Part shown: piece by piece, positions 21,871 through 64,000 of the stretch | Layout of the letters: every line of letters begins with the position of its first letter | Position numbering within the stretch: position 1 is the stretch's first letter | Source: Thermodesulfobacteriota bacterium | GTDB taxonomy: Bacteria; Desulfobacterota; Desulfobacteria; Desulfobacterales; SURF-7 | DNA: 64,000 nucleotides | Reading direction: 5' to 3' | NCBI GenBank assembly: GCA_049320885.1 | Contig: JBMORA010000028.1 | Span: 32,001 to 96,000, forward strand | Notes under the pieces: model-generated | What the model saw: the letters and a program-made list of their open reading frames with translations, nothing else | The model's database searches: none | Told to the model about the DNA's origin: nothing | Translations under genes and position numbers: made by a program

Positions 21871-22722
21871 TTGGATTTACGCGAAGCCTTCAAGCATGCG
21901 ATCGCCATTAATCAGAGCAACTGGAACCGTTTCGCCGGGTTGTTCCAATGGATCAACCGGCTGGCGCCCTATTCCCAATCACCCCTGGCGGGTCCCTTTC
22001 TGAAACACATCCTGAAATTCGACCGACCCGACAGAAATTTCACCCAGGGGTTCACCCTCGCCATCAACCGGTCCATAAAAAACAACTGCCGCAACGCCAT
22101 CCTTCCCGTCCAGATCGTCCGCAACACGCTGCTCCATTCTTCCTACCGGGCCATCATGCATAAATGCCTCTGCCGTGACGGCGGCCGCTGTTCCCGTTAC
22201 CCGTTGGATTTCGGATGCATTTTCATCGGCGAAGGATCACGGGTGACGGAAGCAAGGGGGATTTCCCGATCGGTGAGCGTGACGGAGGCTTTGGCGCACC
22301 TGGAACAAGCCGCGGATCTGGGACTGGTCTGTCAGTGCATCTGGGTGGAAGCCGAGGAGTTCGTCTGGGGCATCCGGCGGAAAAACCTGCACCGTTTCCT
22401 GGAAATCTGTTTTTGCTGTCCCTGCTGTTGCATCGCCCTGAAAAATCTCAAACACGTGGGACCCGACATCCGCGAGCGGTTTCGTTCCGTCGGTTGGCAG
22501 GCGAGGTCGACAATCCCCTGCAGCGGCTGCGGGAAATGCGCGAAAACCTGCCCCGTGGGCGCCATCCGCATTCAAGCCAACGCCGCAGTGGTTTCCGGAC
22601 AATGCATCGGTTGCGGCATCTGCCTGCATCGTTGTCCCGAAAAGGCGCTTGAACTGACCCCCACCGGGGAAACAAAATCCCGGATTCATGATTATTTCCG
22701 AGGATTTTCACTGGATGTATGA
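21871..22722 (+). CDS. Cys-rich 4Fe-4S dicluster protein
   Basis: CLCR...C...C, ICFCCPCCC, CSGCGKCAKTCP and CIGCGICLHRCP. TTG start. Confidence 0.85.
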   Translation: MDLREAFKHAIAINQSNWNRFAGLFQWINRLAPYSQSPLAGPFLKHILKFDRPDRNFTQGFTLAINRSIKNNCRNAILPVQIVRNTLLHSSYRAIMHKCLCRDGGRCSRYPLDFGCIFIGEGSRVTEARGISRSVSVTEALAHLEQAADLGLVCQCIWVEAEEFVWGIRRKNLHRFLEICFCCPCCCIALKNLKHVGPDIRERFRSVGWQARSTIPCSGCGKCAKTCPVGAIRIQANAAVVSGQCIGCGICLHRCPEKALELTPTGETKSRIHDYFRGFSLDV

Positions 22723-22864: not shown

Positions 22865-22922
22865 TTGACAGATAATATATACTTTCTATATATGCTTTTT
22901 ATATATTCATCGTATATAAAAA
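22865..22922 (+). promoter_or_regulatory. Promoter with two candidate PadR operators
   Basis: TTGACA at 22865. ATATAT-N7-ATATA at 22875-22892 and 22901-22918. Perfect TTTTTATATA-N7-TATATAAAAA at 22896-22922. Confidence 0.65.
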
Positions 22923-22943: not shown

Positions 22944-23495
22944 ATGGCCATCAAATATTCCATTCTCGGATTGCTGCATTACAAGGACATGCACGGATAC
23001 CGGATCAAGGAGCATATCGAGCGCAATTTCGGCCATATGTGGTCCATCAATTACGGTCAGATCTATCCCAACCTGAAAAAGCTCTGCGATGACGGACTCA
23101 TCCGGATGCATGAGAAGACCCGGAACGGCGACAAAGGCGGCCCGCCCCGCAAGCTCTACTCCATCACCGAAAAAGGCCGGGAGGAGTTCGTCCGCTGGCT
23201 GCATGATTCTCCGGAACGGACCATGATCATGCGCGACCCGTTTCTGATGCGCTTTGTCTTTTTCGGTTTCGGGGACCGGGACAAGGCCCTGGAGCTGATC
23301 GACGAGCAGATCCGGGAATACGAGCTTCAACTGAAGCGGCGCGGGCTGAACAAGACACGCTGGTCGGAATTGGGCGACTACGTCCGCATGGTGGCCGACC
23401 TGGGCATCACGTTCAATGAAATGTACCTGGACTGGCTGAAGCGGGCGCGGGACGAGATCGCCCAAAAGCCACCAAGTCAAAGGGGTAACCCATGA
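22944..23495 (+). CDS. PadR-family transcriptional regulator (AphA-like C-terminus)
   Basis: ILGLL...HGYRIK...GQIYPNLKKL...RKLYSITEKGREEF...RDPF. Confidence 0.92.
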   Translation: MAIKYSILGLLHYKDMHGYRIKEHIERNFGHMWSINYGQIYPNLKKLCDDGLIRMHEKTRNGDKGGPPRKLYSITEKGREEFVRWLHDSPERTMIMRDPFLMRFVFFGFGDRDKALELIDEQIREYELQLKRRGLNKTRWSELGDYVRMVADLGITFNEMYLDWLKRARDEIAQKPPSQRGNP

Positions 23496-24487
23496 AAACC
23501 TCAGACATTTGCCTGGTAACCGGCGCTGCCGGATTCATGGGCAGTCATGTGGTGGAAGAGCTGGTCCGGACCGGCGCCCGGGTGATCGCCACCAGCCGTC
23601 CGCGCAGGGACACCTCCTTTTTCGACGCCCTGGGGGTCCGGTACATTCCGGCGGACCTGACCCGTCCCGATACGTTGATCCCGCTGTTTGCGGAAAAGGT
23701 GGAGCGCGTTTTTCATCTGGGCGCCGTCTGCAATTTTTCCACCCCCTATGCGAAGCTGCACCCGACCAACGTCGCCGGCGTCGATTGCCTTACGGATCTG
23801 GCCCGACAGCATGCGGTGGGTTGCTTTGTGCATGTCACCTCCACCAGCGTATACGGCTATTATCAGGGGACACCCTTCACGGAGGAATCGCCGCGAAGCC
23901 CCATGGACGATTACGGCCGCAGCAAGCGTGACGGTGAGGACATCGTCTTCCGCAAAATGCAACTCGGTCTGCCAGCAATCGTGGTCAGACCCTGCACGGT
24001 CTATGGCCCGCGATGCAATGACGGGGCCGGCAAGGTATTCTCGCGGCCCGGAGCCATCAAGGCGATACCCGGCAGCGGGAATCAAAAACTCTCCAACATC
24101 CGTGCCGAGGATGTGGCTGCCGCCGTGGTGTATCTCTCGGAAAGGGAAGACGCCAGGGGTCGGGTCTACAACCTGGCCGACGACTCCCATCCCACCGTCG
24201 GCGAAGCGCTGCGGACGGCCGCGCTCACATTCGGAACTCCGGTGCCTTCCCTGCATTTGCCTTTGTGGCTGGTCCGTTTCGTGGCCCGCCTGGAGGGCTT
24301 GGTCTGCCGATTCCGCAACCGCATACCGGAGCTGGAATACGATGCCGCCAGATATCTCGCGGCGGATTATATCGTGGACAACAGCCGCTTGAAGCAGACC
24401 GGATTCCGTTTCCGTTATCCGGACTTCGCAGCCTCCATGGAGCAATTGGGCGCCGCCTTCCGGTCGGATCGTCCATCGAAACCGTGA
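23492..24487 (+). CDS. NAD-dependent epimerase/dehydratase (extended SDR)
   Basis: TGAAGFMG, VFHLGA, STSVYG, YGRSK, RPCTVYGP. ATGA overlap with padR. Confidence 0.9.
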   Translation: MKTSDICLVTGAAGFMGSHVVEELVRTGARVIATSRPRRDTSFFDALGVRYIPADLTRPDTLIPLFAEKVERVFHLGAVCNFSTPYAKLHPTNVAGVDCLTDLARQHAVGCFVHVTSTSVYGYYQGTPFTEESPRSPMDDYGRSKRDGEDIVFRKMQLGLPAIVVRPCTVYGPRCNDGAGKVFSRPGAIKAIPGSGNQKLSNIRAEDVAAAVVYLSEREDARGRVYNLADDSHPTVGEALRTAALTFGTPVPSLHLPLWLVRFVARLEGLVCRFRNRIPELEYDAARYLAADYIVDNSRLKQTGFRFRYPDFAASMEQLGAAFRSDRPSKP

Positions 24488-24501
24488 ATAAAGGGGGGAA
24501 T

Positions 24502-25332
24502 ATGGGCAACGTGATCGTCATTACAGGACTGGCGGAAGGAATGGGGCGGGAAGTGGCCGTGATGTTGGCCCGGTCTGGAGACACCATCGCCGGATTCGAC
24601 ATGAATTCCGCGGGTATCGCCGCATTGGAGCAGGAGCTGAAATCCCATGGGAATCCGTTTTACCTGGAAACCATGAACATAACGGACCGCGGTGGTATTC
24701 AGCGGTTCCGGGATACGGTGCTGGATCGATTCGGCCAGGTGGACACCGTCGTTTCCAATGTGGGGATCGGTTTTTTCGGCCCCTTTGAGGAAACTGATCT
24801 CGAAAAGGCCATGAAATGCCTGGAAATCAACGTGATCGGAGCCGCGGCCATATTTCAGGCCTTTCTTCCGTCCATGCGCCTGAAGCGTCGCGGCAAACTG
24901 GTGGCCATGTCCTCCCTGGTGGGCCGGATCCCCTTTCCCTTCGAGTCCATTTATACGGCCTCCAAATTCGCCCTCCAGGGAATGATGGAGGCCATCCAAT
25001 ACGAGGTCAAACCTTTCGGTATTGACGTGGCCTTGGTGGAACCGGCCCAGGTTTCCACCAATTTCGCGGCCAAAATCCATCAGCTGCCGCCGGAAGGAAG
25101 CCCCTATCGCGATCGGGCGCGGCGTTTCATCGAGAGAGACAATGCCCTCATCAAGACCGCCACCACGCCCCGGACGGCGGCGGAAAAAATTGTCCGGGTG
25201 ATCCGCGACCATCGTCCCCGGCTGCATAACCAGGTGGATTTCATGAGTACCGTTTTTCTGGCCCTGAACCGGATTCTTCCCAAATTCGCGCGGGACATGA
25301 TTCTCGTGAACTACATGGATATTCGTGCATAA
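24502..25332 (+). CDS. Classical short-chain dehydrogenase/reductase
   Basis: ITGLAEGMG, VSNVGIG, MSS, YTASKFAL, VEP. ATG 24502 follows GGGGGG RBS. Confidence 0.9.
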   Translation: MGNVIVITGLAEGMGREVAVMLARSGDTIAGFDMNSAGIAALEQELKSHGNPFYLETMNITDRGGIQRFRDTVLDRFGQVDTVVSNVGIGFFGPFEETDLEKAMKCLEINVIGAAAIFQAFLPSMRLKRRGKLVAMSSLVGRIPFPFESIYTASKFALQGMMEAIQYEVKPFGIDVALVEPAQVSTNFAAKIHQLPPEGSPYRDRARRFIERDNALIKTATTPRTAAEKIVRVIRDHRPRLHNQVDFMSTVFLALNRILPKFARDMILVNYMDIRA

Positions 25333-25342
25333 AGGAGGCCCC

Positions 25343-27724
25343 ATGGAAACAGCCCGGGCATTGTCGACGATTCCCGCCGAAACACGGGTGGGCCGGCTCC
25401 GGCGCCGCATTATCGAGGCTCCCCAGGAAATCTGCGTGGAGCGGGCCCGGTATCTCACCCAGGCCATGGCGTGGCACTGGGACAAGGATCCCCTAACCCG
25501 CATGAGCCTGGCCCTCGAACATATCCTTTCCCGGATACGCGTCATTATCCGGCCGGATGAACTGATCGTGGGCTGCCGGACCAGCAAGCTCAAGGGCGCC
25601 CCCTTGTTTCCGGAGAACAAGATCCGCTGGATCGAAGGCGACGTGGAGAATTTCGACCGGCGGGTGGTCCAGCGCGCCTTGATCACCGAGGAGGAGAAAG
25701 CCGAAGTTCTGCGGGACATCGTGCCCTTCTGGAAAGGCCGGTCCGTCGAGGAGCATTTCGAATCGCTGCTGCCGGCGGACGTGGCCGAGGACATGGACAA
25801 ATATATCTTCACCATGATGCTGGAGATCACTTACGGCATCGGACATTTCACCATGGACCATCCCCGGGTGCTCCGGGAAGGGCTGTCCGGAGTCATCCAC
25901 CAATCCCGGGAGGCTTTCGCGGCGCTGTCCCCTTCCGAGCAATCATCGGAAAAAGGCCGCTTCCACCTGGCGGTGATGCGCAGCCTGAAGGCCGCCATTC
26001 ATTTCGCGGGACGCCATGCGGATCATGCTGAAACATTGGCCGCCGCCGAACCGGACCCTGTGCGCAGGCAGGAACTCCAAATGATCGCCGCGGTCTGCCG
26101 GCAGGTTCCCGAACATCCGGCCCGGACCTTTCACGAGGCGGTCCAGGGGCTCTATTTCATCCATCTCATCGCCCAGATCGAGTCCGGCGGCAACTCGGTT
26201 TCGTTGGGCCGCATCGACCAGATTCTCCAGCCCTACTATAAAAAGGATTTGGAAGCAGGCCGCATCACGCCGGATCAGGCCCGGGAACTCATGGCCTTGC
26301 TGTTCCTCAAAACCAACGAAATCTGGAATGTTCTGGAGGAAGCCTACATTCCGGGAGGGGAAGGAACGGAAGGCAAAACCACCCAGAACGTCACCGTGGG
26401 CGGCGTGGATGCCGCAGGCAGGGACGCCACCAACGAACTCAGCTTCATCGGCCTGGACGCCTATTCCCAAATCCGTACGGTCCAACCCAATTTCGGCGTG
26501 CGCATCAGCGCCGGGACGCCGGAGTTGTTTTTCATGAAAGCCGCGGCCTGCGCCAAAGACGGCGTATTGCTGCATTTTTTCAACGACGACGCCATCGTGC
26601 CCTCCCTGATCCTGGCGGGACATTCGGAAGCGGACGCCCGGGATTACGGCGTCGTGGGCTGCCTGGAGCCCAACGCCCAAGGTAAATCCTTCGGTTCCAC
26701 GTTCGCGGCCCAATTCAATCTCATCAAATGCGTGGAGTTGGCCCTGAGCAACGGCATCGACAACATTTTCGGGTATCGCACCGGACTCGAAACCGGCGCG
26801 CCGGAAACATTCCGCTCCTTTGAGGACGTCTTTCGGGCTTACGACCGTCAGGTTTCCCATTTCATCGGCCAGCTCACCAGGGGCATGGAATGTCTGGACC
26901 GCGCCATAGCGGAACGGCTGCCCTCGCCCTTCGCTTCCGCCATGATCCAGGGAACCCTTGAAACAAGCCGCGACCTCACCCGGGGAGGAGCGCGCTACAA
27001 TTCCACCGGTATCCAGTTCATGGGTTTTTCCAACACCGCGGACAGTTTGTATGCCGTGAAAACAGCCGTCTATGATGAAAAATCCGTCCGCCTGGAGGAA
27101 TTGGCCGCCTGGCTGGGCGACGACTGGACGGACGCGGAAGACAAAAGAACGTATTTTCAGAACAAAATCCCCAAGTACGGCAACGACTGCGATCCCGTGG
27201 ACCGCATGGCCGCAATGGTGGCCAACCATTTTTGCGATCTGCTGCAACGCCACCGGAATTTCCGCGGCGGTCATTACTGGCCGGGGATTTTCTCCGTGGG
27301 GTTCCACGTATCCATGGGGGCTTTCACGGGCGCGACGCCGGACGGGCGGTATGCCGGAGAAGTCCTGGGCAACGGGGTCACCCCGAGCAACAGCGCGGCG
27401 CTCAAAGGCCCCACCGCCATCATGAACTCCGTCACCCGACTTCCCCTCCGGCGGGTGTATAACGGCATGAACCTGAACATGCGCTTCCAGGGAAAACAGG
27501 TCAAGGCGGCCAACCTCATGAACCTGATCCGCGCTTATTTTGAAAAAGGCGGATTTCAGGTGCAGTTCAACATGGTGGACAGCGCCACCTTGCGCAAGGC
27601 CCAGCAGCATCCGGAACAGTATCGCGATCTCATCGTGCGCATCAGCGGCTATTCCGGCATTTTCATCAATCTGAGTGATATCGCCCAGGACGAGATCATC
27701 AGCAGAACCGAACAGACCCTGTAG
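25343..27724 (+). CDS. Glycyl radical enzyme (PFL superfamily), uncharacterised class
   Basis: ERAR, DELIVG, FPE, GRIDQ, Cys loop VGCLEP, PKYGND, ATPDGR, GPTA, QFN and Gly loop LIVRISGYS. AGGAGG RBS precedes ATG 25343. Confidence 0.93.
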   Translation: METARALSTIPAETRVGRLRRRIIEAPQEICVERARYLTQAMAWHWDKDPLTRMSLALEHILSRIRVIIRPDELIVGCRTSKLKGAPLFPENKIRWIEGDVENFDRRVVQRALITEEEKAEVLRDIVPFWKGRSVEEHFESLLPADVAEDMDKYIFTMMLEITYGIGHFTMDHPRVLREGLSGVIHQSREAFAALSPSEQSSEKGRFHLAVMRSLKAAIHFAGRHADHAETLAAAEPDPVRRQELQMIAAVCRQVPEHPARTFHEAVQGLYFIHLIAQIESGGNSVSLGRIDQILQPYYKKDLEAGRITPDQARELMALLFLKTNEIWNVLEEAYIPGGEGTEGKTTQNVTVGGVDAAGRDATNELSFIGLDAYSQIRTVQPNFGVRISAGTPELFFMKAAACAKDGVLLHFFNDDAIVPSLILAGHSEADARDYGVVGCLEPNAQGKSFGSTFAAQFNLIKCVELALSNGIDNIFGYRTGLETGAPETFRSFEDVFRAYDRQVSHFIGQLTRGMECLDRAIAERLPSPFASAMIQGTLETSRDLTRGGARYNSTGIQFMGFSNTADSLYAVKTAVYDEKSVRLEELAAWLGDDWTDAEDKRTYFQNKIPKYGNDCDPVDRMAAMVANHFCDLLQRHRNFRGGHYWPGIFSVGFHVSMGAFTGATPDGRYAGEVLGNGVTPSNSAALKGPTAIMNSVTRLPLRRVYNGMNLNMRFQGKQVKAANLMNLIRAYFEKGGFQVQFNMVDSATLRKAQQHPEQYRDLIVRISGYSGIFINLSDIAQDEIISRTEQTL

Positions 27725-27740
27725 GATACGGAGGAATTCA

Positions 27741-28676
27741 ATGAGCAAGGTCATGAGCACCAAGGAGGCGGTTTCCCGGTTTATCGGCAACGGCGCCTTC
27801 CTGTATATCGGCGGCTACGTATGCCGCCCGCCTTTTGCCGTCATCCATGAGATCATCCGTCAGGGGATCAGGGACCTGACCATCACCCGCAGCAATGCCG
27901 CGGATGATTTCGATCTGCTCATCGGCGCGGGCGCGGTGAGGCGTTTCATCGGCACCTTTCTGTCCCTGGGACTGTACGGGCTCGGAAGGTGTTATCGCCG
28001 CGCCATGGAAAAAGGCATCCCCCACCCTCTTGAAGTCGAGGAATACACCAATCTTTCCCTGCCCATGATGCTCATGGCCGGCGCTCTCGGCATGCCCTTC
28101 GTGCCGGTGAAAGACATGCTGGGGTCCGATTTGCTCAACGTGCGGTCATTCCTGGGCGACAATAAATACAAGCTGATCTCCTCTCCCTTTGACGGCAGTC
28201 CGGTGCTGCTGGTGCCGGCGCTGAAACCGGACGTGGCCGTCATTCATGTCCAGCAGGCGGACGAGGACGGCAACGCCCAGATGTGGGGCATCGGCGGGGA
28301 CTGCCAGCAGGGCGCCAACGCGGCCGGAAAGGTGATCGTGAGCTGCGAGCGCATCGTATCCCGCGAGACCATCGGCAAGGATCCGTCACGGACCATCGTG
28401 CCGGCCATGAAAGTCGCCGCCGTGGTGGAAGAGCCCTTCGGAGCCCATCCCGGTTACACGCCGGGTTTCTATGATGTGGATTTTTCATTCGGATACGTCT
28501 ATCAGCAGGCCTCCAACACCGTGGAAGGCGTCAACGCTTTTTTGCAGGAATGGGTCCACGGCGTTCCGGACCGGACGGCCTATGTCCAGCATTACATCCA
28601 GAAATTCGGCTTCGGCGCTTTTCGGAAACTCCAGGCTGACTTCGATTACGCCTTTCCGGTGAGTTATGCCTATTGA
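27741..28676 (+). CDS. Family-I CoA-transferase alpha subunit (glutaconate CoA-transferase A-like)
   Basis: HEIIRQG, DLLIGAG, AGALGMPF, PALKPDVAVIHVQQADEDGNAQ, PFGAHP. Confidence 0.9.
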   Translation: MSKVMSTKEAVSRFIGNGAFLYIGGYVCRPPFAVIHEIIRQGIRDLTITRSNAADDFDLLIGAGAVRRFIGTFLSLGLYGLGRCYRRAMEKGIPHPLEVEEYTNLSLPMMLMAGALGMPFVPVKDMLGSDLLNVRSFLGDNKYKLISSPFDGSPVLLVPALKPDVAVIHVQQADEDGNAQMWGIGGDCQQGANAAGKVIVSCERIVSRETIGKDPSRTIVPAMKVAAVVEEPFGAHPGYTPGFYDVDFSFGYVYQQASNTVEGVNAFLQEWVHGVPDRTAYVQHYIQKFGFGAFRKLQADFDYAFPVSYAY

Positions 28677-28736
28677 TGTGTTGACGCGGCAACACCTTTT
28701 GAAAATGCACCCATTGACCAACAGGGAGACGAATCT

Positions 28737-29537
28737 ATGACAACCCATCCGGCCGGTTACATCAAACCGGAACTCATGGCTTGTTGCGGCGCCCGGGAAA
28801 TCCAGGATCACGACGTGGTCATCGTCGGCACCGGCTTTCCCACCATGAGCGCCAATATCGCCAAACACCTGCATGCCGTCCATGCGGTCATGATGCAGGA
28901 ATCCGGCGTCATCGATGCAAGACCCAGGCGCCCCGCCCTTTCCGTGGGCGATCCCTGCCTGAATCCGGGAGCCGCCATGATCGGCGGCCTGGTCGACATC
29001 ATGGGCATGTGCCTCCAGGCCGGCATGGTGGACGTGGGATTTTTGTCCGGCAGTCAGGTGGACCAATTCGGCAATATCAACACCACCGCCATCGGCAGGT
29101 ACAACCAGCCCAAAAGCCGCCTTCCCGGCAGCGGCGGCGCCAACCCCATCGGCTCCCTGGCGAAACGCACCCTCATCATCACCCTGCACGACAAGCGCCG
29201 GCTGGCAAACAAAGTGGATTTCATCACCACCCCGGGCTATATCGACGGTCCCGGTGCCCGGGAAAAATGGGGCCTGCCCAAGGGGACCGGACCCCATTGC
29301 ATCATCACCAACAAGGCGATTTTGCGTTTCGACCCTTCCACCGGCACGGCTTACCTGGCTTCCTACCATCCCGGATGCTCGGTGAAGGAAATTCAGGATA
29401 ATACCCCCTGGGATCTGAAGGTGGCCGATGATGTTCATGAGACCGAACCGCCCCGGACGGAGGAACTGAGAGTGATCCGGGAAGTGCTCGACCCCCATCG
29501 CATGATCCGGATTTATGAACAGCGCGGATACGTATAA
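28737..29537 (+). CDS. Family-I CoA-transferase beta subunit (GctB-like)
   Basis: VIVGTGFP, catalytic-position QESG, GFLSGSQVDQFGNINTT, RLPGSGGA, VDFITTPG. Confidence 0.9.
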   Translation: MTTHPAGYIKPELMACCGAREIQDHDVVIVGTGFPTMSANIAKHLHAVHAVMMQESGVIDARPRRPALSVGDPCLNPGAAMIGGLVDIMGMCLQAGMVDVGFLSGSQVDQFGNINTTAIGRYNQPKSRLPGSGGANPIGSLAKRTLIITLHDKRRLANKVDFITTPGYIDGPGAREKWGLPKGTGPHCIITNKAILRFDPSTGTAYLASYHPGCSVKEIQDNTPWDLKVADDVHETEPPRTEELRVIREVLDPHRMIRIYEQRGYV

Positions 29538-29573
29538 ACGGATACATATAAACAGAATATCGCGGAGGAACGC

Positions 29574-30941
29574 ATGGAACATACCCGCAACCTGGCAACA
29601 TTTTGCGCGGAACTTACCTTTTCGAGCCTGCCGGCCGATGTCGTCCACAAGGCCAAACTGTGCCTGCTGGATTATGTGGCCAACATTTACGGCTCCCTGG
29701 AATTGTCGGCGGTGAGTCAGGTGATCGACCACGTCCGCTCCCTGGGGGACGGCAACGCCGCCACCGCCCTCGGTTGCGGCTTCAAGACCAACCTGCTGCA
29801 AGCGGCGTTCATCAACGGCACCCTGGCCGAAGCCATCGAGGCCCAGGACGGGGTCCGGTTCGGCGGGAATCATCCGGGAGCGGCGGTGATCCCCGCCGCC
29901 ATGGGCATCGCCGAGCAGCTGCATCTGGACGGCAAGGCCATGATCGGCGCCATCGTGGCGGGTTATGAAGCCGCCAACCGGCCGGCGGCCGCCATGCACC
30001 CCTGGCACACCCTCTCCGGATTTCTTCCCACCGGCACCTGCGGGGCCTTCGGCGCGGCGGCGGCGGCCGGATATTTATATGGATTCGGCCCGGAAAAAAT
30101 GCTGCATGCCATCGGCAACGCCGGCTATCTGCTGCCCTTGTCCATGGCGGAACATCTGATGGCCGGCTGCACCATCAAAATCGTTCAAGGCGGTCAGGCG
30201 GCCTCCGCCGGTATCCTGGCCGCCGGTCTGGCCGGCAACGGCCTGACCGGCTCGACCCAGGTATTGGAGGGATCGGCCCTGAAAGGCGGATTCACCCAGA
30301 TCACCACCCGGGCCGAACCCAAGGTTGAAAAAATCAGCGACAACCTCGGAAAGTCCTTCTCCATCATGGACGTGTATTTCAAACCCTATACCGCCTGCCG
30401 CCATACCCACGGCGCAGCCCAGGCTGTCCTGGGGCTTTTGGAGGAAACGCCCATCGCTGCGGACATGGTGGAGCGGATCGATGTATATACTTACGGCATC
30501 GCCCAGCTGGCGGTGGGCAAAAGCGTGGACGCAGGCAGCTCTTTCGTTTCCGCCCAGTTCTCCATTCCCTATGTGGTGGCCGCCTGTCTTCTGGACCGCG
30601 CCCTGGGTCCCGGGCAGCTTACCGAAAAGCGCATGACGGACCCGGCGATCATGGACCTTTCGAAAACCGTCCGGGTCCATACGGACGACGAGCTGAACCG
30701 GCGCTACCCGGATGTTACCGCCTCGCGGGTGGCCGTGACGATGAAAGACGGCCGCTGTTGTGAACGGCAGATCGACATCCCCAAGGGCGATCCGCGGGAT
30801 CCCATGACGGCCGGCGATATTGCGGAAAAGGTCCGTTTTTTCGCCGGGAATCGAAATCCGGATACGATCGATGAAGTCATCCGGATGATTTTGAAACTGG
30901 AAACCGTGACGGATATGGCCGACATCGCCACCCGGATTTAA
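29574..30941 (+). CDS. MmgE/PrpD family protein
   Basis: AAFINGT, HPGAAVIPAA, GYE, KPYTACRHTH, AQFSIPY, PKGDPRDPM. Confidence 0.9.
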   Translation: MEHTRNLATFCAELTFSSLPADVVHKAKLCLLDYVANIYGSLELSAVSQVIDHVRSLGDGNAATALGCGFKTNLLQAAFINGTLAEAIEAQDGVRFGGNHPGAAVIPAAMGIAEQLHLDGKAMIGAIVAGYEAANRPAAAMHPWHTLSGFLPTGTCGAFGAAAAAGYLYGFGPEKMLHAIGNAGYLLPLSMAEHLMAGCTIKIVQGGQAASAGILAAGLAGNGLTGSTQVLEGSALKGGFTQITTRAEPKVEKISDNLGKSFSIMDVYFKPYTACRHTHGAAQAVLGLLEETPIAADMVERIDVYTYGIAQLAVGKSVDAGSSFVSAQFSIPYVVAACLLDRALGPGQLTEKRMTDPAIMDLSKTVRVHTDDELNRRYPDVTASRVAVTMKDGRCCERQIDIPKGDPRDPMTAGDIAEKVRFFAGNRNPDTIDEVIRMILKLETVTDMADIATRI

Positions 30942-31041
30942 CGGCGTCTTCTTCCCTCCGCCGGATTCGCACAGAGGCATACCGGACGAAGGCACATCGG
31001 ACGGCAAAAGCATTGCTTAATTATCAAGGTAAGGAGGATTT

Positions 31042-32202
31042 GTGGATTTTAGCCTGAGCAAAGAGCAGACCATGCTGATCCAATCCCTGCGGGACATGGG
31101 GAAACGGGAAAAATTCGATGAACTGGCCGCCCGGATCGACGCCACCGCGGAATTTCCCCATCACCTACTAGGAAAATACGCGGACCTGGGCCTTCTGGGC
31201 ATGGTGTTGCCCACCGAATTCGGCGGCGAAGGGGAAACCTCCCTCACCGCCATCCTGGCCATCGAGGAACTGGCCAAATTCAGCCCCATGATCGCGGCAC
31301 CGGTGTTCGAATCCAATGTGGGGCCGGTGCGGGTGATCGCCATGTTCGGCACGGACGAGCAGAAACGCCGGATTCTTCCGGGTGTCTGCAAGGGCGAACA
31401 CAGCGTTTCGGTCTGCATGACCGAGCCGGAATCGGGTTCGGACTTGACCGCCCTGTCCACCCATTTGAAAGAGGACGGGGATGGATATGTGCTGAACGGC
31501 AGAAAGGTGTTTATCACCGGCGGCGGCGAGGCCAGTCATTATATGGTCTACGCCCGCTTCGGGGACATCTCCGGCTACAAAGGCATCGGAGCGGTGATCG
31601 TGGAGAAGGGCGCACCCGGCTTCACCTTCGGCAAGCAGGAAACTTATATGGGGTTGCGCGGCATGCCGTCCTGCGATCTGTTTTTCGACGACGTCCGGAT
31701 ACCCCGGGAAAATGTGGTGATCCGCAGCGGTGAATTCGGCAATCTGATGCTGACCTTCGATATCGAACGATGCGGCAATGCGGCCATGTGCCTGGGCGTT
31801 GCCGGCGGCGCCATGGAGGCCGCCAGAAAATACGCCCTGGAAAGGACCGCGTTCAACCGCCCGATCTGCGAATTCCAGGATATCCAGTTCATGCTGGCGG
31901 ACATGGCCATGAAGCTCGATGCGGCCCGTCTCCTGGTCTATCGCGCGGCCAGCAACGCCGGCCAGGGTCTCCCGTCCGTCTACGAAGCTTCGATGGCCAA
32001 ATGTTTCGCCAATGAAATGGTCAAGGAGGTCACGGACAACGCCATGCAGATATTCGGCGGTTACGGGTACAGCACCGAATTCCCGATAGAACGGATGCTG
32101 CGGGACAGCCGGGCCTGGGGGATCGCCGGCGGCAGCCTGCAGATGCTGCGGATCACCATGGCCAGCGTCCTTTTCGGCCGTCGCTTCGATCAACGCAAAT
32201 AG
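31042..32202 (+). CDS. Acyl-CoA dehydrogenase family protein
   Basis: TEPESGSD, LNGRKVFIT, GLRG, QIFGGYGY, RDSR. GTG start follows AAGGAGG. Confidence 0.92.
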   Translation: MDFSLSKEQTMLIQSLRDMGKREKFDELAARIDATAEFPHHLLGKYADLGLLGMVLPTEFGGEGETSLTAILAIEELAKFSPMIAAPVFESNVGPVRVIAMFGTDEQKRRILPGVCKGEHSVSVCMTEPESGSDLTALSTHLKEDGDGYVLNGRKVFITGGGEASHYMVYARFGDISGYKGIGAVIVEKGAPGFTFGKQETYMGLRGMPSCDLFFDDVRIPRENVVIRSGEFGNLMLTFDIERCGNAAMCLGVAGGAMEAARKYALERTAFNRPICEFQDIQFMLADMAMKLDAARLLVYRAASNAGQGLPSVYEASMAKCFANEMVKEVTDNAMQIFGGYGYSTEFPIERMLRDSRAWGIAGGSLQMLRITMASVLFGRRFDQRK

Positions 32203-32276
32203 CGCGGGAAGCGCAACGGAAAGGGAACAATCCACCAAAAAACACCGCCCGTCCGAAAAACGGGGAGGAGGAAAAG

Positions 32277-32714
32277 ATGAGCGAATACTACCGGGATGCG
32301 GATCATTTGTATGAAATTTACGGGTATTTCATGGACAAGGTGCTGCGGGACGAAAAGATCGGCCCCAAAATGGCCAAATCCAACATCATCATCCGTTTCA
32401 TCTACACGGATCCGGACTCGGAAATCACCATCGATTTCCGCAACAAGCCCGTCAAGGATGGGTATTACGGCAATTTCTACCTAGGCCCGACGGAATTGAA
32501 GGAGGATGTGTGGTCCAAGCAGAGCGCCGATCATTCCCACCGCTTCTGGCATGGCTATGAAAACCCCATCGCCGCCGTGGCCAAGGGGAAGGTGAAACAG
32601 GGAGGCAAGGTGACGGCCATGCTGAAATTGCTGCCGGTGGTCAAGCCGACCTTTCAGAAATTTCCGGAAGTCCTGCGGGAAATGGGGTACGAAAACCTGG
32701 TGGTGCAGAGATAA
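32277..32714 (+). CDS. SCP2 (sterol carrier protein-2)-like protein
   Basis: 145 aa. IRFIYTDPDSEITID...SADHSHRFWHG...AVAKGKVKQGG...MLKL resembles the SCP2 fold C-terminus. GGAGG RBS. Confidence 0.65.
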   Translation: MSEYYRDADHLYEIYGYFMDKVLRDEKIGPKMAKSNIIIRFIYTDPDSEITIDFRNKPVKDGYYGNFYLGPTELKEDVWSKQSADHSHRFWHGYENPIAAVAKGKVKQGGKVTAMLKLLPVVKPTFQKFPEVLREMGYENLVVQR

Positions 32715-32731
32715 CGCAACGGGAGAACAGG

Positions 32732-34159
32732 ATGAACATACGGGACAGCGTTTACATGGACGGAAAATGGAGAAAACCGTCGGGGAACGAATGGCTGGAG
32801 GTGGAAAATCCCTGCACGGAAACGGTCGTCGGCCGGGTGGCCATGGGAAACACCGCGGATGTGGACACGGCCGTAACGGCTGCGGGAAGGGCTTTTGAAT
32901 CCTGGTCGACCACCTCCGTCGAGGAACGGGAAGACTTTCTACTCAGGATCGCCGAAGCCCTTGCCGAAAGGCAGGACGAGATCGGCGATACCATCGCCGG
33001 GGAAATGGGCATGCCGGTGACATGGGCCCGCATGCTCCAGGCGGGATTGCCCATTGCCGCATTCAACAGTTTCGCCCGCATCATCAAGGACTACCCCTTC
33101 GCATACGGCGCCGACAGCACCCACATCCGCCGGGAGCCCATCGGTGTATGCGGCTTCATCACGCCCTGGAATTACCCGCTGCACCAGATCGCCGGGAAAG
33201 TGGCCCCGGCCATCGCCGCCGGCTGCACCATGGTGCTGAAACCCAGCCAGCTGGCGCCGCTGAATGCCTTCCTGCTGGCGGAAATCATGGAGGCGGTGGG
33301 CCTGCCGCCGGGTGTCTTCAACCTGGTCTGCGGCAGCGGGAACGAAGTCGGCCAGGCCCTGGCGGCCCATGCCGGCGTCGACATGATCTCCCTCACCGGC
33401 TCCACCGCCTCCGGTGTCAAAGTGGCCCGGACGGCAGCCGGAACCGTCAAGCGGGTCACCCTGGAACTGGGCGGGAAATCGGCCAATATCCTCCTTCCGG
33501 ACGCCGACTTCGAAGTGGCGGTGCCCGAAGGCATCAACGCCTGCTTTCTGAATTCCGGCCAGACCTGTTCCGCCCTCACACGCATGCTGGTTCCCCGGGA
33601 TCGCCAGGCGGAGGCGATTGAAATGGCCGTGGCGGAAACCGAAACCCTGGTCATGGGGGACTCGTCCGACGAAGACGCCTTTCTCGGTCCCCTGGTGAGC
33701 CGGGATCAACGGGAATCCGTGCGGGAATACATCCGCAGGGGCATCGAGGAAGGCGCCAGGCTGGTCCTGGGCGGACCCGAGCCGCCCGCGGGATTCGTCA
33801 CGGGCTATTATGTCCGTCCAACCATCTTTGCGGACGTGAGGCCGGAAATGACCATCGCCCGGGAGGAAATATTCGGCCCCGTGCTGGCGATTATACCCTA
33901 CGATACCGAAGAGCAAGCCGTCCGGATCGCCAATGACAGCATCTATGGGCTATCCGGAGCCGTCTGGTCCACGGATCTCGACAAGGCCAGAAGCGTCGCC
34001 GCGAAATTGCGAACCGGCCAGGTCTTTCTCAACGGCGCGGGTTTCGACGTATATGCCCCCTTCGGCGGATACAGGCAATCCGGCAACGGGCGGGAGAGAA
34101 GCCGGTACGGCTTGGAGGAATTCCTGGAAATCAAGGCGATCATGGGATACAATCCCTAG
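32732..34159 (+). CDS. NAD(P)-dependent aldehyde dehydrogenase
   Basis: ITPWNYP, KPS, LTGST, LELGGKS, NSGQTC, EEIFGP, PFGGYRQSG. Confidence 0.95.
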   Translation: MNIRDSVYMDGKWRKPSGNEWLEVENPCTETVVGRVAMGNTADVDTAVTAAGRAFESWSTTSVEEREDFLLRIAEALAERQDEIGDTIAGEMGMPVTWARMLQAGLPIAAFNSFARIIKDYPFAYGADSTHIRREPIGVCGFITPWNYPLHQIAGKVAPAIAAGCTMVLKPSQLAPLNAFLLAEIMEAVGLPPGVFNLVCGSGNEVGQALAAHAGVDMISLTGSTASGVKVARTAAGTVKRVTLELGGKSANILLPDADFEVAVPEGINACFLNSGQTCSALTRMLVPRDRQAEAIEMAVAETETLVMGDSSDEDAFLGPLVSRDQRESVREYIRRGIEEGARLVLGGPEPPAGFVTGYYVRPTIFADVRPEMTIAREEIFGPVLAIIPYDTEEQAVRIANDSIYGLSGAVWSTDLDKARSVAAKLRTGQVFLNGAGFDVYAPFGGYRQSGNGRERSRYGLEEFLEIKAIMGYNP

Positions 34160-34413
34160 CGCCGGTCCGCCATGAGGAAACGGCTGCCCGGCATTTCGCC
34201 GGTTTCAGCCGTTTTCCCCATCATGCGCGACGCTGGTTTTTACCGGTGCTCGTTTTCGCCCTGACTTTCCGTTTTGGAATCAGGACTTTCCCTATGGACA
34301 AATATTTTCCGATCGGATAGAAATACCGGCACACATTCACTCGATCCTTTCGCAATAGACGTTCGTTTGACGTGCGATGAGCGCACTTCCCCAAAACCGA
34401 TGGAGGTGACCCT

Positions 34414-60922: not shown

Positions 60923-62833
60923 TCAGCGCGACTGCCCGGCCAGCCGGCGGTAGGCTTCCCGGCTCACGGACCGCTCCTCGTGAATCATCCGGTCCCAGAT
61001 CCGCTGCTCCTTTTCCCAGGCGTCGCGGAAGGCGGCGCTCTCCTCGATTTCCTTCCACCGGCGATGGCAGCCGGCTGTTTTCCCGGCCTTGGGCTTGAGG
61101 CGGATGCGGCGGAAGACATCCCTGCCGCCGTGTTCGTACCAGAGCAGGGTATGAGCCGTGGACAGGGAGCCGGCCCAGGGATAGGAATGCAGCCACCAGC
61201 CCGAGGAAAGTTTCTCTATGGCCGCATCCAGTTTTTCCTGGTCCCGGTGGCTCTTGGAAGCCCTGGCCTCCGTGTAAAACAAAGCGGTCTGGAACACATC
61301 GCCTTTCACCCCCCACACTTCCCGGACGCCGTATTCCTCCGGATGACGGGCGATATGGGAGCCATGGCTCAGATCGAAACGGCCGCAGATGAACAGGGCC
61401 ACATCTTCTTGCAGGTCCTCGATCATCCGGAGCGTGGCGCGGGCCTCACCGTAAGTTTCCGTGGGAAATCCCAGGAAGCACATGGCTTCGGCGGCAATGC
61501 CGGCCGCCGACAGATTGCGGATGGCGGCCACGGCATTCTCCGTCGTGAGACCCTTGCGGATCAATTTCAGCACGCGTTCCGCCCCGCTCTCGATCCCCAG
61601 GGCGACGCTCAAGGCTCCGCCCTTTGCCAGCTCCCGACAGAATCCGGCCGTCAGGGCCGGCTCCGGCCGCATGTCCGTTCCCCAGCGGCAGTCGATACCG
61701 GCCGCCTGTATGCCCCTGGCCAGGGCAAGGGCGGTTTTCGGCGCCAGGGCGTCCTGGGAAAAGTAGATCATCCGGCAATCGAAACCGTCGACAAGAAGAC
61801 GGATATCCTCGATCATCCGCTCCACCGGCCGTTCCCGGTACGGCGCCACGCCGGATTCGCACAAGCCGTAATGACAGAAGGCGCATTTGCCCCAATAACA
61901 ACCGCGGGTGGGATCATAGGACAATACCGGCCGGGGACTGAAATAGGAAGCCAGGGGGAACCCACTGTAGTCTGGCACGGGAAGTTCCTCCATACTGCGA
62001 ACCGGCCGGCCGTAAAGGATAGGTTCCGGCTTCCGGCCGTTCCGCAACGCGACGATCAATTCTTCCAAAGCCGTCTCGCCCTCGAAGAGCACCGCGGAAT
62101 GAAAAGGCCCGAGCAAGTTCTTCCGTTGTTCCGGCGCCGCCCGGAGGAGCAGCTGGGTCATGGCCGGTCCTCCGGCGGTTACGTGCACATGGGGCAGCTG
62201 TCCGCGGACGGCATGGGCCAGGGAGTATGCTGGCTGAATCTGTCCGGGAAACGCCACCGAAATGCCCACAATCGGAATGGCCGCTTCCCGCAGTCTGGCC
62301 GTCAGTTCCCGGAAATATCCGCCAAACGGATCGTTGTCCGGACCGGCGTCCCGTTCGATCTCCGCGAGATTCAACAGGGAAAACGGCGTGCGGTAGGATT
62401 TGAAATCCATTTGCAGCGGTGTATAGGCGGCGCTCACCAGCCGGAGCGACTTTTCTACGGTTTCAACCGCCTCCTGATAGCGCGCCGGATCAAAAAACAG
62501 GCGGCCGGAACGATCCCGCAACACCGTCAAACTAGCCTGGATCCTGCCCGGGACCTCCTGCGCGAAGCAGGCCCCCCGGACAAGTTCATAATGCGCCAAT
62601 TGCTCTCCATGACTGCGCGCCGCCTTTTTTTCAAGGCGGCGGAGGCGTTTGTGGATCCGCTCCCCCAGTTTCCCAAGGTGCTCCGGCCGCAGCAGCCACT
62701 CAAAGGCTTCCACGTTGGCGTCGATGGCCAGCACCCGGATTCCCCGGGTTCTCAGGTATCCGGCCAGGGAAGGAACGGAAATATAGGGCGCCGTGGGATC
62801 GCAGGACGGGGGAAAAATCAGGGCTATGCTCAT
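60923..62833 (-). CDS. B12-binding-domain radical SAM protein
   Basis: N-terminal LIFPP...PYISVPSLAGYL, VGISVAFPGQ, AGGP, then RGCYWGKCAFC, GIESG, GFPTET. Start moved to ATG 62833. Confidence 0.88.
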   Translation of the reverse strand: MSIALIFPPSCDPTAPYISVPSLAGYLRTRGIRVLAIDANVEAFEWLLRPEHLGKLGERIHKRLRRLEKKAARSHGEQLAHYELVRGACFAQEVPGRIQASLTVLRDRSGRLFFDPARYQEAVETVEKSLRLVSAAYTPLQMDFKSYRTPFSLLNLAEIERDAGPDNDPFGGYFRELTARLREAAIPIVGISVAFPGQIQPAYSLAHAVRGQLPHVHVTAGGPAMTQLLLRAAPEQRKNLLGPFHSAVLFEGETALEELIVALRNGRKPEPILYGRPVRSMEELPVPDYSGFPLASYFSPRPVLSYDPTRGCYWGKCAFCHYGLCESGVAPYRERPVERMIEDIRLLVDGFDCRMIYFSQDALAPKTALALARGIQAAGIDCRWGTDMRPEPALTAGFCRELAKGGALSVALGIESGAERVLKLIRKGLTTENAVAAIRNLSAAGIAAEAMCFLGFPTETYGEARATLRMIEDLQEDVALFICGRFDLSHGSHIARHPEEYGVREVWGVKGDVFQTALFYTEARASKSHRDQEKLDAAIEKLSSGWWLHSYPWAGSLSTAHTLLWYEHGGRDVFRRIRLKPKAGKTAGCHRRWKEIEESAAFRDAWEKEQRIWDRMIHEERSVSREAYRRLAGQSR

Positions 62834-63078
62834 TAAAGACTCCAGGCTGTTCATGAACCGGTTTTTTCGCCGATCCATACCAGAAATTCCTCTTTTTTGA
62901 AAAAAGTCCATGCATTTCCGCATGGCCGATGGAAATCCGGCAGAAAAAACAGTTGCAATACGTTCCCGGTTCCGGTATGGAATGGCAGCTTACCGTTAAT
63001 AAAAATATAAACAATTTCATTTAGTTGCAATACAGACAGGCCGACGCGGCCATTACCGGACGGAAACGAGGAAGGGTT

Positions 63079-64000
63079 TTGAGAAAAATTCTGATCATCA
63101 AGCTGTCGTCGCTGGGAGATATTTTCATGGCGCTGCCCCATATCGAGGCGGTGGTCAACCATCATCCCGGCGACACCGTTTACCTGCTGACGACACCGCC
63201 CTTCGCGGATCTGTTCGCTCATCATCCCCGGTTGAAAACCGTCATTCTGGACCGCTCCAAATGGTTGGCTCCGGATAGCTCCCTGGGCAGGCGGAACTGG
63301 ATCCGGCAGGGGCGCTTCGACGTTGTCTACGATCTTCAAGGCAACCGTATCAGCCGCATGCTGGTGCGCGCCTCGAAAGCGCCCGTGCGGGTCGGGAAAA
63401 AAGGCGGTTCGGTGTATACCTGCCACCCGCCGTCCGACGACGAAGACCGGCATGTGTTCGAGCGCCTGACATCCTTTGTCGCCGCCGCCGGCGTGCCGGA
63501 GGTCCCTTCCCGGAGTACCCTGTATCCGTCTCTGGCCGACACGGAGCGGGTGGCCAGATGGAAGACGGATCATGGTATCCTGGACGGCCGGTATGTGATT
63601 TTTCACGCCGGTTCCAGTCCCGAATGGCCGTCCAAAAGATGGCCGGCCGATTACTACGAAAAGCTGGCCCTCCTGCTGGAGCAGGCGGGATTTCAGTGCA
63701 TCTGGGTGGGCGGCAGGGCGGACGAGGGACTGAACCACCGGCTGGCGTCCCGGGCGGGAGTCGACGCCACCGGCAAATTCAACACCATGCAACTGTATCT
63801 GCTGGGTGAAAACGCCGCCATGGCCGTCACCAATGATTCCGGCCCCATGCATATTCTGGCGGCGGCGGGCATTCCGGTGTTCACTTTTTTCGGCCCCACC
63901 AACTGGTTCAAGCACCATGCGGTGGGACAGAAGCAGCGGGTGATGTACCACCCCGTGGATTGCGGTCCCTGCTACCGCAAAAAATGCCCGCCCCGGTTCG
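63079..64000 (+). CDS. Glycosyltransferase family 9 (LPS heptosyltransferase-like), 3' truncated by the window edge
   Basis: Not in the ORF track. TTG start: MRKILIIKLSSLGDIFMALP...DLQG...HAGSS..KRWP...NDSGPMHILAAAG...FFGPT. Confidence 0.9.
   Translation, partial: MRKILIIKLSSLGDIFMALPHIEAVVNHHPGDTVYLLTTPPFADLFAHHPRLKTVILDRSKWLAPDSSLGRRNWIRQGRFDVVYDLQGNRISRMLVRASKAPVRVGKKGGSVYTCHPPSDDEDRHVFERLTSFVAAAGVPEVPSRSTLYPSLADTERVARWKTDHGILDGRYVIFHAGSSPEWPSKRWPADYYEKLALLLEQAGFQCIWVGGRADEGLNHRLASRAGVDATGKFNTMQLYLLGENAAMAVTNDSGPMHILAAAGIPVFTFFGPTNWFKHHAVGQKQRVMYHPVDCGPCYRKKCPPRF

Follow-up and report, generated by a model that had tools for sequence, protein, structure and literature searches.

A recurrent gene cluster around an uncharacterised glycyl radical enzyme: a candidate operon for anaerobic lipid catabolism

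Organization of the locus

The DNA analysed (the window) is a stretch of 64,000 nucleotides from a Thermodesulfobacteriota bacterium (GenBank assembly GCA_049320885.1, contig JBMORA010000028.1, positions 32,001 to 96,000). At 22944..34159 it carries ten genes around a glycyl radical enzyme (GRE), and this GRE class and its pathway are real, widespread and uncharacterised. The companions are a PadR-type repressor, two short-chain dehydrogenases/reductases (SDRs), a CoA-transferase, an MmgE/PrpD-family protein (PrpD), an acyl-CoA dehydrogenase, an SCP2-fold protein and an aldehyde dehydrogenase (ALDH). Open reading frame (ORF) calls on the window placed all ten genes on the + strand, co-directional and closely packed, as a first-pass annotation made from the letters alone had described them. 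The families named there were borne out by domain matches and, for the 145-aa gene, by the fold match of an AlphaFold model to SCP2. The intergenic gaps are -4, 14, 10, 16, 60, 36, 100, 74 and 17 nt, and the next gene starts 254 nt after the last. The features are listed below with the evidence for each; fractions give the orthologs in 80 related loci, counted only over loci with sufficient flank.

22867..22918, + strand: promoter region and candidate PadR operator; four TATATA hexamers (22876-22918) after a -35-like hexamer at 22867
22944..23495, + strand: PadR-family repressor, two-domain type with C-terminal Vir_act_alpha_C (domain match; 59/63)
23492..24487, + strand: extended SDR with NAD-dependent epimerase / 3-beta-hydroxysteroid dehydrogenase-like fold, core gene (66/69)
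24502..25332, + strand: classical SDR, core gene (domain match; 71/72)
25343..27724, + strand: eliminase-type GRE of an uncharacterised family, 793 aa (PFL-like and Gly_radical domains, motif residues)
27741..28676, + strand: family I CoA-transferase, alpha subunit (CoA_trans domain; 60/67)
28737..29537, + strand: family I CoA-transferase, beta subunit (CoA_trans domain; 54/61)
29574..30941, + strand: MmgE/PrpD-family protein with altered active site (residue comparison; 50/54)
31042..32202, + strand: acyl-CoA dehydrogenase without the usual C-terminal catalytic Glu (motif alignment; 50/52)
32277..32714, + strand: SCP2-fold protein, putative lipid carrier, 145 aa (AlphaFold model fold match; 44/47)
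32732..34159, + strand: aldehyde dehydrogenase (Aldedh), accessory, exchangeable with aldehyde:ferredoxin oxidoreductase (domain match, locus comparison)

The GRE likely starts at ATG 25343 (793 aa, same as the database call) and the CoA-transferase alpha subunit likely at ATG 27741. The promoter and terminator scan stayed at chance level (3 vs 4.6; 16 vs 12.9) and missed the operator array; a terminator-like site at 34231-34248 is no more than a lead. Just upstream of the operon, a 4Fe-4S ferredoxin-domain gene (21871-22722) was considered as an operon member and rejected on account of an ortholog in only 1 of the 80 loci.

Conservation and natural gene replacements

A genome scan with the GRE yielded 158 relatives, from which 80 loci were retained, every one titled metagenome-assembled genome. 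The hosts are Desulfobacterota-type lineages, Spirochaetota, Chloroflexota, Actinomycetota, SAR324 and others. When the host phylum was sampled evenly, the GRE was found in 23 of 401 genomes (~6%). Eight companions of the GRE recur over the 80 loci with gene order mostly kept. The neighbourhood check proposed in the first-pass annotation thus found the set held together across phyla, with amendments for three of its members.

The ALDH had been listed with the set and is better regarded as an accessory: it occurs in 14 of the 80 loci, an aldehyde:ferredoxin oxidoreductase (AOR) in 20, both in 4 and either in 30. Among the 34 long-flank loci, 21 carry ALDH or AOR and 13 carry neither. CoA-transferase and PrpD are recurrent and behave as one exchangeable module that is kept or lost together; an AMP-forming ligase replaces both in L023, L069, G004 and L132. 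Two such ligases from two phyla are 68% identical to each other, and their top match is a long-chain-fatty-acid-CoA ligase, below cut-off. In five genomes with a locus devoid of the module, neither a PrpD ortholog nor a close CoA-transferase was found elsewhere (completeness of these genomes unknown).

Because ALDH and AOR, and likewise CoA-transferase plus PrpD and the ligase, are non-orthologous replacements of each other, an aldehyde step and an acyl-CoA step, both assumed in the first-pass annotation, gain support. Together with the SCP2-ALDH fusions described below, the replacements point to the order aldehyde, acid, acyl-CoA and to a lipophilic aldehyde, as judged from gene context.

A DUF362 Fe-S gene lies between the CoA-transferase genes in seven related loci. 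The host genome holds a 56-62% identical DUF362 gene at G000:C18:107932-109389 (L099:7933-9390), beside a MarR gene, an extended SDR and the dsrAB region.

Probable regulation by PadR

The four TATATA hexamers upstream of padR are spaced 5-7 nt apart. A pattern of two such spaced hexamers, chosen after the repeats had been seen, matched three times in the window and never in 100 shuffles. Of 65 padR loci, 54 had it no more than 150 nt ahead of the padR start; in L088 it lies one gene further upstream, and in 10 it is missing. None of the 15 loci without padR had it, 10 of these having little upstream DNA. Genome-wide, three of the five matches are the padR array itself. A regulon search with the triple array gave matches in 24 of 46 host genomes, mostly the operon itself. 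Nine other sites were inspected (two of them the spaced pairs of this genome); one is a split-off ALDH-padR part in G442, and the others showed no consistent gene. The TATATA array is probably the PadR operator and the operon self-regulated, as far as motif distribution can tell. In G442 (L135), a GRE 50% identical to the C53-type GRE described below stands back to back with the operator-led ALDH-padR piece.

The glycyl radical enzyme

The GRE matched PF02901 with 635 bits and PF01228 with 97 bits, and passed only the broad model TIGR01774 (697 vs cut-off 678). Its scores remained below the NCBIfam cut-offs of HpfG (554/1000), HpsG (466/1000), HypD (525/1100), PflD (PRK09983; 511/1109), CutC (433/1050), IAD (380/1100), HPAD (287/1150) and PFL (160/994). 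A database search gave 841 proteins below E 1e-100 among 7999 scored. At least 120 relatives scored 1248-1522 bits, with 67-82% identity among the matches listed, as against 542 bits for the best solved match, the B12-independent glycerol dehydratase. The family forms one 50% cluster among 1.84 billion 50%-cluster representatives, the nearest other cluster being 43% identical. Clustering, which the first-pass annotation had suggested as a check on its view of the GRE as uncharacterised, upheld that view: the cluster is isolated, and the enzyme lies under every characterised-family cut-off tested. A description of the operon was not found in the searched literature; network tables of GREs published in supplements or subscription papers might contain the cluster.

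In a FastTree phylogeny of 157 rows (midpoint root, local supports only, characterised sequences absent from the rows), seven family rows grouped with P0148 inside a group of 51 rows. This group also contains two GREs fused to SCP2 and four paralogs encoded by the host genome. Outside it lie the representatives with the top scores for CutC, HpfG, PflD and HypD (120 of 150 representatives scanned). P0148, the nearest representative beyond the family (43%), carries a Gly where the catalytic Cys would be and is possibly an inactive sister GRE.

All 53 aligned members share C440, E442 and G769, together with H168, N284, E332, E333, E340, F454, F650 and H655. In the alignment to glycerol dehydratase, H164 is kept (H168), and H281, D447 and Y640, which we take to be substrate ligands there, are replaced by N284, F454 and F650. 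Only H168 is therefore left of the ligand set H164-H281-D447 of glycerol and propanediol dehydratases. His164 of glycerol dehydratase is the proposed acid for the leaving hydroxyl, and Cys-X-Glu, present here as C440 and E442, is given as the mark common to GRE eliminases and isomerases in the sections 5.6 and 5.7 of a June 2026 review (PMC13450708). Since Cys-X-Glu and Gly are invariant, the acid His is kept and the pocket residues are replaced by N, F and F, the most likely chemistry would be a 1,2-elimination in a less polar pocket.

Glycerol dehydratase (1r8w/1r9d), the GRE propanediol dehydratases (5i2a, 9rco) and HpfG share with the operon GRE the fold, the Cys-X-Glu loop, the glycyl Gly and the acid His. 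Downstream of HpfG an aldehyde is oxidised, to which the operon may be likened. Unlike the diol dehydratases, the operon GRE has SCP2, PrpD, CoA-transferase and acyl-CoA dehydrogenase as companions and lacks an adjacent activase. PflD and YbiW, which cleave C-O ether bonds in anhydrosugar phosphates and set a precedent for ether C-O cleavage, also have Cys-X-Glu, and a His of PflD matches H655. However, PflD keeps Asp where the operon GRE has F454, and the PTS, kinase and aldolase genes of the PflD/YbiW setting were not seen in the operon loci. The PFL2/PflD of Archaeoglobus fulgidus (2f3o), the function of which is itself debated, is the fourth solved match of the GRE (468 bits) and the first of the SCP2-fused P0151 (599 bits); it has Asp at the F454 position and no counterpart of H655. 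Asgard GREs near Archaeoglobus PflD are the subject of PMC8163825.

The SCP2-fold protein and the aldehyde step

The 145-aa protein alone had no Pfam or NCBIfam match. A single-sequence fold (pLDDT 49) was replaced by an AlphaFold model from 46 sequences (mean pLDDT 94.7), which aligned to human SCP2 over 109 residues (Z 13.6, rmsd 1.9); the ten best structural matches were all SCP2-fold chains. Its Atlas neighbours carry PF02036 at 0.94-0.95. The model thereby confirms the SCP2-like assignment of the first-pass annotation, and gene fusions tie the protein to the aldehyde step. Orthologs (78-81% identical) are fused to an ALDH ortholog in four sequences (L017 and P0297-P0299), which share 67-74% identity with each other. 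In 18 loci, AOR directly follows SCP2. The protein is conserved as strongly as the enzymes (63-90% identity). The fold and the fusions suggest a lipid carrier serving the aldehyde step, and because the SCP2-fold protein is fused to ALDH, the aldehyde intermediate would be lipophilic.

A role as GRE subunit was considered on the basis of the related GREs P0151 and P0157, which have N-terminal SCP2 domains (Pfam E 1e-7 to 1e-6). The SCP2 family profile matched these fusions with E 1e-5 (P0157) and 0.09 (P0151), and the profile comparison gave a probability of 4%. This role was ranked below the ALDH link after the close orthologs had been found fused to ALDH. A metagenome scan with P0157 retrieved three distant loci. 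No recurrent small-subunit gene besides SCP2 was found among locus ORFs of 90 aa or more.

SCP2-like domains occur in further contexts. About 1.4 kb before the window, an 842-aa protein joins one to a full E1 alpha-beta thiamine pyrophosphate (TPP) dehydrogenase (G000:C28:28047-30575; L127:6048-8576), a fusion that recurs in several other genomes. An iron-containing alcohol dehydrogenase (Fe-ADH) is fused to SCP2 in G177 (L121). A second SCP2-ALDH pairing of the host genome (G000:C9:210539-218190; L128) has the order ALDH, SCP2, small unknown gene, two FAD oxidoreductases, acyl-CoA ligase. At G000:C53 (L102:6632-11129), a TetR gene precedes a 983-aa GRE and an activase, and the N-terminal extension of this GRE is SCP2-like by predicted structure.

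Downstream enzymes

The extended SDR is far below the cut-offs of all named families, and the closest solved relatives of the classical SDR are 17-beta-hydroxysteroid dehydrogenase 1 (17-beta-HSD1) chains, at E 1e-27 only. E55 of the CoA-transferase beta subunit presumably stands at the catalytic position of GctB.

The PrpD residues were compared with the family-shared residues and roles given in PMC12290011. The catalytic His (H100), E89, K202 and K270 are kept. Relative to IDS epimerase, two carboxylate-binding His are replaced by E86 and L151 and the second-base Tyr by T146, so that the His and Tyr bases and five carboxylate ligands of a two-base epimerase are not all present. Because of these replacements the substrate may be a monocarboxylate, as the residue comparison suggests, and the reaction possibly a one-base beta-elimination.

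The methylsuccinate module of Pseudomonas and Cupriavidus comprises the same three enzyme kinds, namely an MmgE/PrpD isomerase, a CoA-transferase and an acyl-CoA dehydrogenase; there, the isomerase acts on the free acid before the stereoselective CoA-transferase and the dehydrogenase (PMC12290011). The operon differs from it by a PrpD without Tyr base and two His ligands, by a family I transferase, and by its proposed place after a radical and an aldehyde step.

In the acyl-CoA dehydrogenase, the usual C-terminal Glu is Gly363 and the preceding Tyr is Ala362. E242, invariant in 24 of 24 sequences, is a candidate alternative base and presumably corresponds to the other Glu of isovaleryl-CoA dehydrogenase. 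The use of another Glu as base by that enzyme, and a link between loss of the Tyr and alpha-substituted or bulky substrates, are described in PMC8360864. The branch of 3-sulfinopropionyl-CoA desulfinases has the same two C-terminal replacements. Its model (3-sulfinopropanoyl-CoA desulfinase, NF042439) is the top NCBIfam match, at 351 against a cut-off of 600, whereas the desulfinase ranks 7th-8th among the solved structures matched. The operon enzyme differs from that branch by the score below cut-off and the invariant E242, which suggests a true dehydrogenase.

Proposed pathway and alternatives

We consider it probable, at roughly 0.58, that the genes form an operon under PadR repression that serves to break down a lipophilic terminal diol, polyol or glycerol ether. 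The substrate would be a glycerol ether, or a long or bulky lipid that ends in CH2OH and bears oxygen on the adjacent carbon; 1-O-alkylglycerol (to 3-alkoxypropanal), bacteriohopanetetrol and bile alcohols may serve as examples. In the activated GRE (by an activase usually encoded elsewhere, here most likely that of contig C25), C440 would take a hydrogen from the CH2OH carbon, E442 would deprotonate the hydroxyl, and H168 would protonate the neighbouring leaving group (water or alcohol) to give a lipophilic aldehyde. SCP2 would carry the aldehyde to ALDH or AOR for oxidation to the acid. PrpD would act on the alpha-carbon of the acid by epimerisation or beta-elimination, and the CoA-transferase would then activate it; in the variant without PrpD a ligase would activate the acid directly. 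The acyl-CoA dehydrogenase would start the oxidation of a branched or beta-substituted acyl-CoA, and the two SDRs may set the oxidation level or the configuration of hydroxyl groups.

As to the substrate, a glycerol ether lipid, the polyol side chain of a triterpenoid or steroid, and an acyclic long-chain or isoprenoid 1,2-diol share the expectation about evenly. Steroid-like likenesses (of the SDR to 17-beta-HSD1, of the accessory transporter to bile-salt MFS, and of the ligase to steroid-24-oyl-CoA synthetase as its third match) and C3 likenesses (glycerol and DHPS dehydratases, desulfinase branch) are weak, all below cut-off, and decide nothing.

Several observations weigh against a lipophilic terminal diol or ether. 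Wherever a companion enzyme bears a lipid or steroid label, its score is under the family cut-off. Family I CoA-transferases usually take short acids and fit a long-chain acid poorly. Accessory genes for an MFS transporter (8 of 80 loci) and an arylesterase/lactonase-like protein (6 of 80) fit a polar substrate, as does a symporter-like membrane gene between array and padR in a SAR324 genome (L088:5976-7361). Four conserved acidic GRE residues (E161, E332, E333, E340) could bind an amine. The 13 long-flank loci without ALDH and AOR leave room for a ketone product or an unlinked oxidase. All characterised PrpD substrates are small 1,4-dicarboxylates, according to PMC12290011.

The acidic residues lead to the first alternative, a C-N lyase whose substrate would be a lipophilic amino alcohol (sphinganine, phytosphingosine or 35-amino-hopanepolyol). 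Loss of ammonia would yield a 3-hydroxy aldehyde and then an acid, which PrpD would dehydrate. The invariant E332, E333 and E340 of the GRE and E86, E89 and D92 of PrpD would suit such a route, the SDR weakly resembles 3-ketodihydrosphingosine reductase (148 of 400 bits), and the host genome encodes a neutral ceramidase. Ceramidase was, however, found in 6 of 41 host genomes only and in none of 22 other hosts of the same phylum, and a sphingoid substrate, listed in the first-pass annotation, gained no support from this. Moreover, position 168 is His and not the Asp of CutC, and a dedicated acyl-CoA dehydrogenase is unneeded after a 3-hydroxy acid. We regard this route as unlikely.

Similarly improbable is a small polar polyhydroxy acid or lactone, which the GRE would convert to a semialdehyde and ALDH to a substituted dicarboxylate, with SCP2 shielding the reactive aldehyde and PrpD, CoA-transferase and acyl-CoA dehydrogenase acting as in methylsuccinate use. 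The shared three-enzyme module, the lactonase-like, MFS and symporter-like accessory genes and the family I transferase agree with it. Yet PrpD is without two of the five carboxylate ligands, a conserved basic residue was not seen at the aligned GRE pocket positions, SCP2 is conserved like the enzymes and fused to ALDH, and the alternative activator resembles fatty-acyl-CoA ligases.

Only a small chance is given to a GRE that forms a ketone by dehydrating an internal vicinal diol, for example in a 9,10-dihydroxy fatty acid from cutin or on a steroid ring. The aldehyde handled by SCP2 and ALDH would then arise when an SDR or alcohol dehydrogenase oxidises a different primary alcohol. The pocket has hydrophobic replacements on two or more sides, Fe-ADH genes occur in 7 of the 80 loci, esterase-like genes lie nearby, ketone-forming GREs exist and 13 of 34 long loci are without aldehyde oxidase, all of which can be read in this way. 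But the closest characterised enzymes by score are terminal-diol dehydratases, and the alcohol dehydrogenase genes are rare accessories.

Cleavage of a lignin-type beta-aryl ether or other aromatic ether, with the SDRs as C-alpha dehydrogenases, is very improbable: the PadR family does include phenolic-acid sensors, and Rieske ring-hydroxylating genes adjoin the closest relatives that the acyl-CoA dehydrogenase has on plasmids (~50%), but a search for the anaerobic ring-opening hydrolase BamA/Oah found it in only 4 of 60 hosts, this genome not among them. Least probable of all is an alkylsuccinate-synthase-like, fumarate-adding GRE, with PrpD, CoA-transferase and acyl-CoA dehydrogenase processing the X-succinate; alkylsuccinate synthase loci are accompanied by PrpD-like, CoA-activating and dehydrogenase genes, and the best solved match of the related P0151 is the debated Archaeoglobus PFL2, but the scores against MasD (242 bits) and BssA (240 bits) chains are less than half of that against glycerol dehydratase, Cys-X-Glu is present, small Fe-S subunit genes were not seen among locus ORFs of 90 aa or more, and ALDH/AOR would be left unexplained.

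Probable activation of the glycyl radical enzyme in trans

The first-pass annotation had left out the activase. No radical SAM activase was found in the window or elsewhere on the contig, and four are encoded elsewhere in the host genome (5.6 Mb, 98% complete), which holds six PFL-like GREs and four activases above the TIGR02494 cut-off. At least one activase was found in 60 of 63 hosts (at most 31 candidates scored per genome). An activase lies within 10 kb in only 8 of the 80 loci, in two of these beside another GRE, and the locus-associated activases do not form one clade (35-73% identity).

A cassette on contig C25 (G000:C25:61700-66830; L103:7697-12827) encodes a GntR regulator, an uncharacterised GRE (837 aa), an activase at 62559-63566 and a PNPOx-like protein. 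The C25-type GRE was found in 46 of the 401 phylum genomes, in 21 of the 23 hosts of the operon GRE and in 25 of the 378 others (2-5 candidates scored per genome; Fisher p 3e-20, overstated since kin are not independent). The C25-type activase was found in 45 of 62 hosts. In nine hosts it is the sole activase found, in assemblies that may miss genes; four of the nine, one of them a genome rated 100% complete, hold just two GREs, the operon GRE and the C25 type. The C25-type GRE was not found in G410, G413 and G439, which have an activase in the operon, that of G410 being 56% identical to the C25-type activase; hence the C25 GRE seems unneeded for the pathway. The operon GRE is likely activated in trans, with the C25-type activase as best candidate donor, a cognate pairing that we infer. 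As regular sources of the activase, the C53 and C46 types of GRE were discarded: the first was found in 7 of 22 hosts and the second in 6 of 22, with an identity of 44-46% in five of these six. A distant GRE sharing its activase would be contrary to the few known cases of cross-activation, all between close homologues.

It is a tentative and rather doubtful proposal that the GRE attacks recalcitrant membrane lipids anaerobically at their glycerol-ether or polyol end, by cleavage or dehydration, with handover of the aldehyde to SCP2 and in trans use of the activase of a second, ~34% identical GRE. If so, it would be the first GRE acting on membrane-lipid remains (alkylglycerol, archaeal ethers, hopanoid polyol side chains) and a marker gene for anaerobic lipid turnover in sediments and digesters. 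Small polar molecules are the substrates of the GRE eliminases and isomerases listed in the June 2026 review, and the terms sterol, SCP2, PrpD and ether are absent from its text (PMC13450708). A GRE family of this spread, with a putative lipid carrier fused to its ALDH, would bring lipids within the range of radical eliminase chemistry. It could also account for the opening of lipids recalcitrant to anaerobic attack by uncultured bacteria of sediments and digesters.

Further GREs of the host genome differ in their activase setting. The gene at G000:C9:13699-16170 (L097:9700-12171) is a second GRE without adjacent activase, and its 76% identical ortholog in L055 lies, with an activase, directly upstream of the operon. 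The GRE at G000:C17:65424-67940 (L100:11425-13941) scored 992 against the cut-off of 1000 of NF048011 (HpsG type) and is followed by aconitase X subunits, a PFK-like gene and an activase. P0191 is a natural activase-GRE fusion in one protein of 1095 aa.

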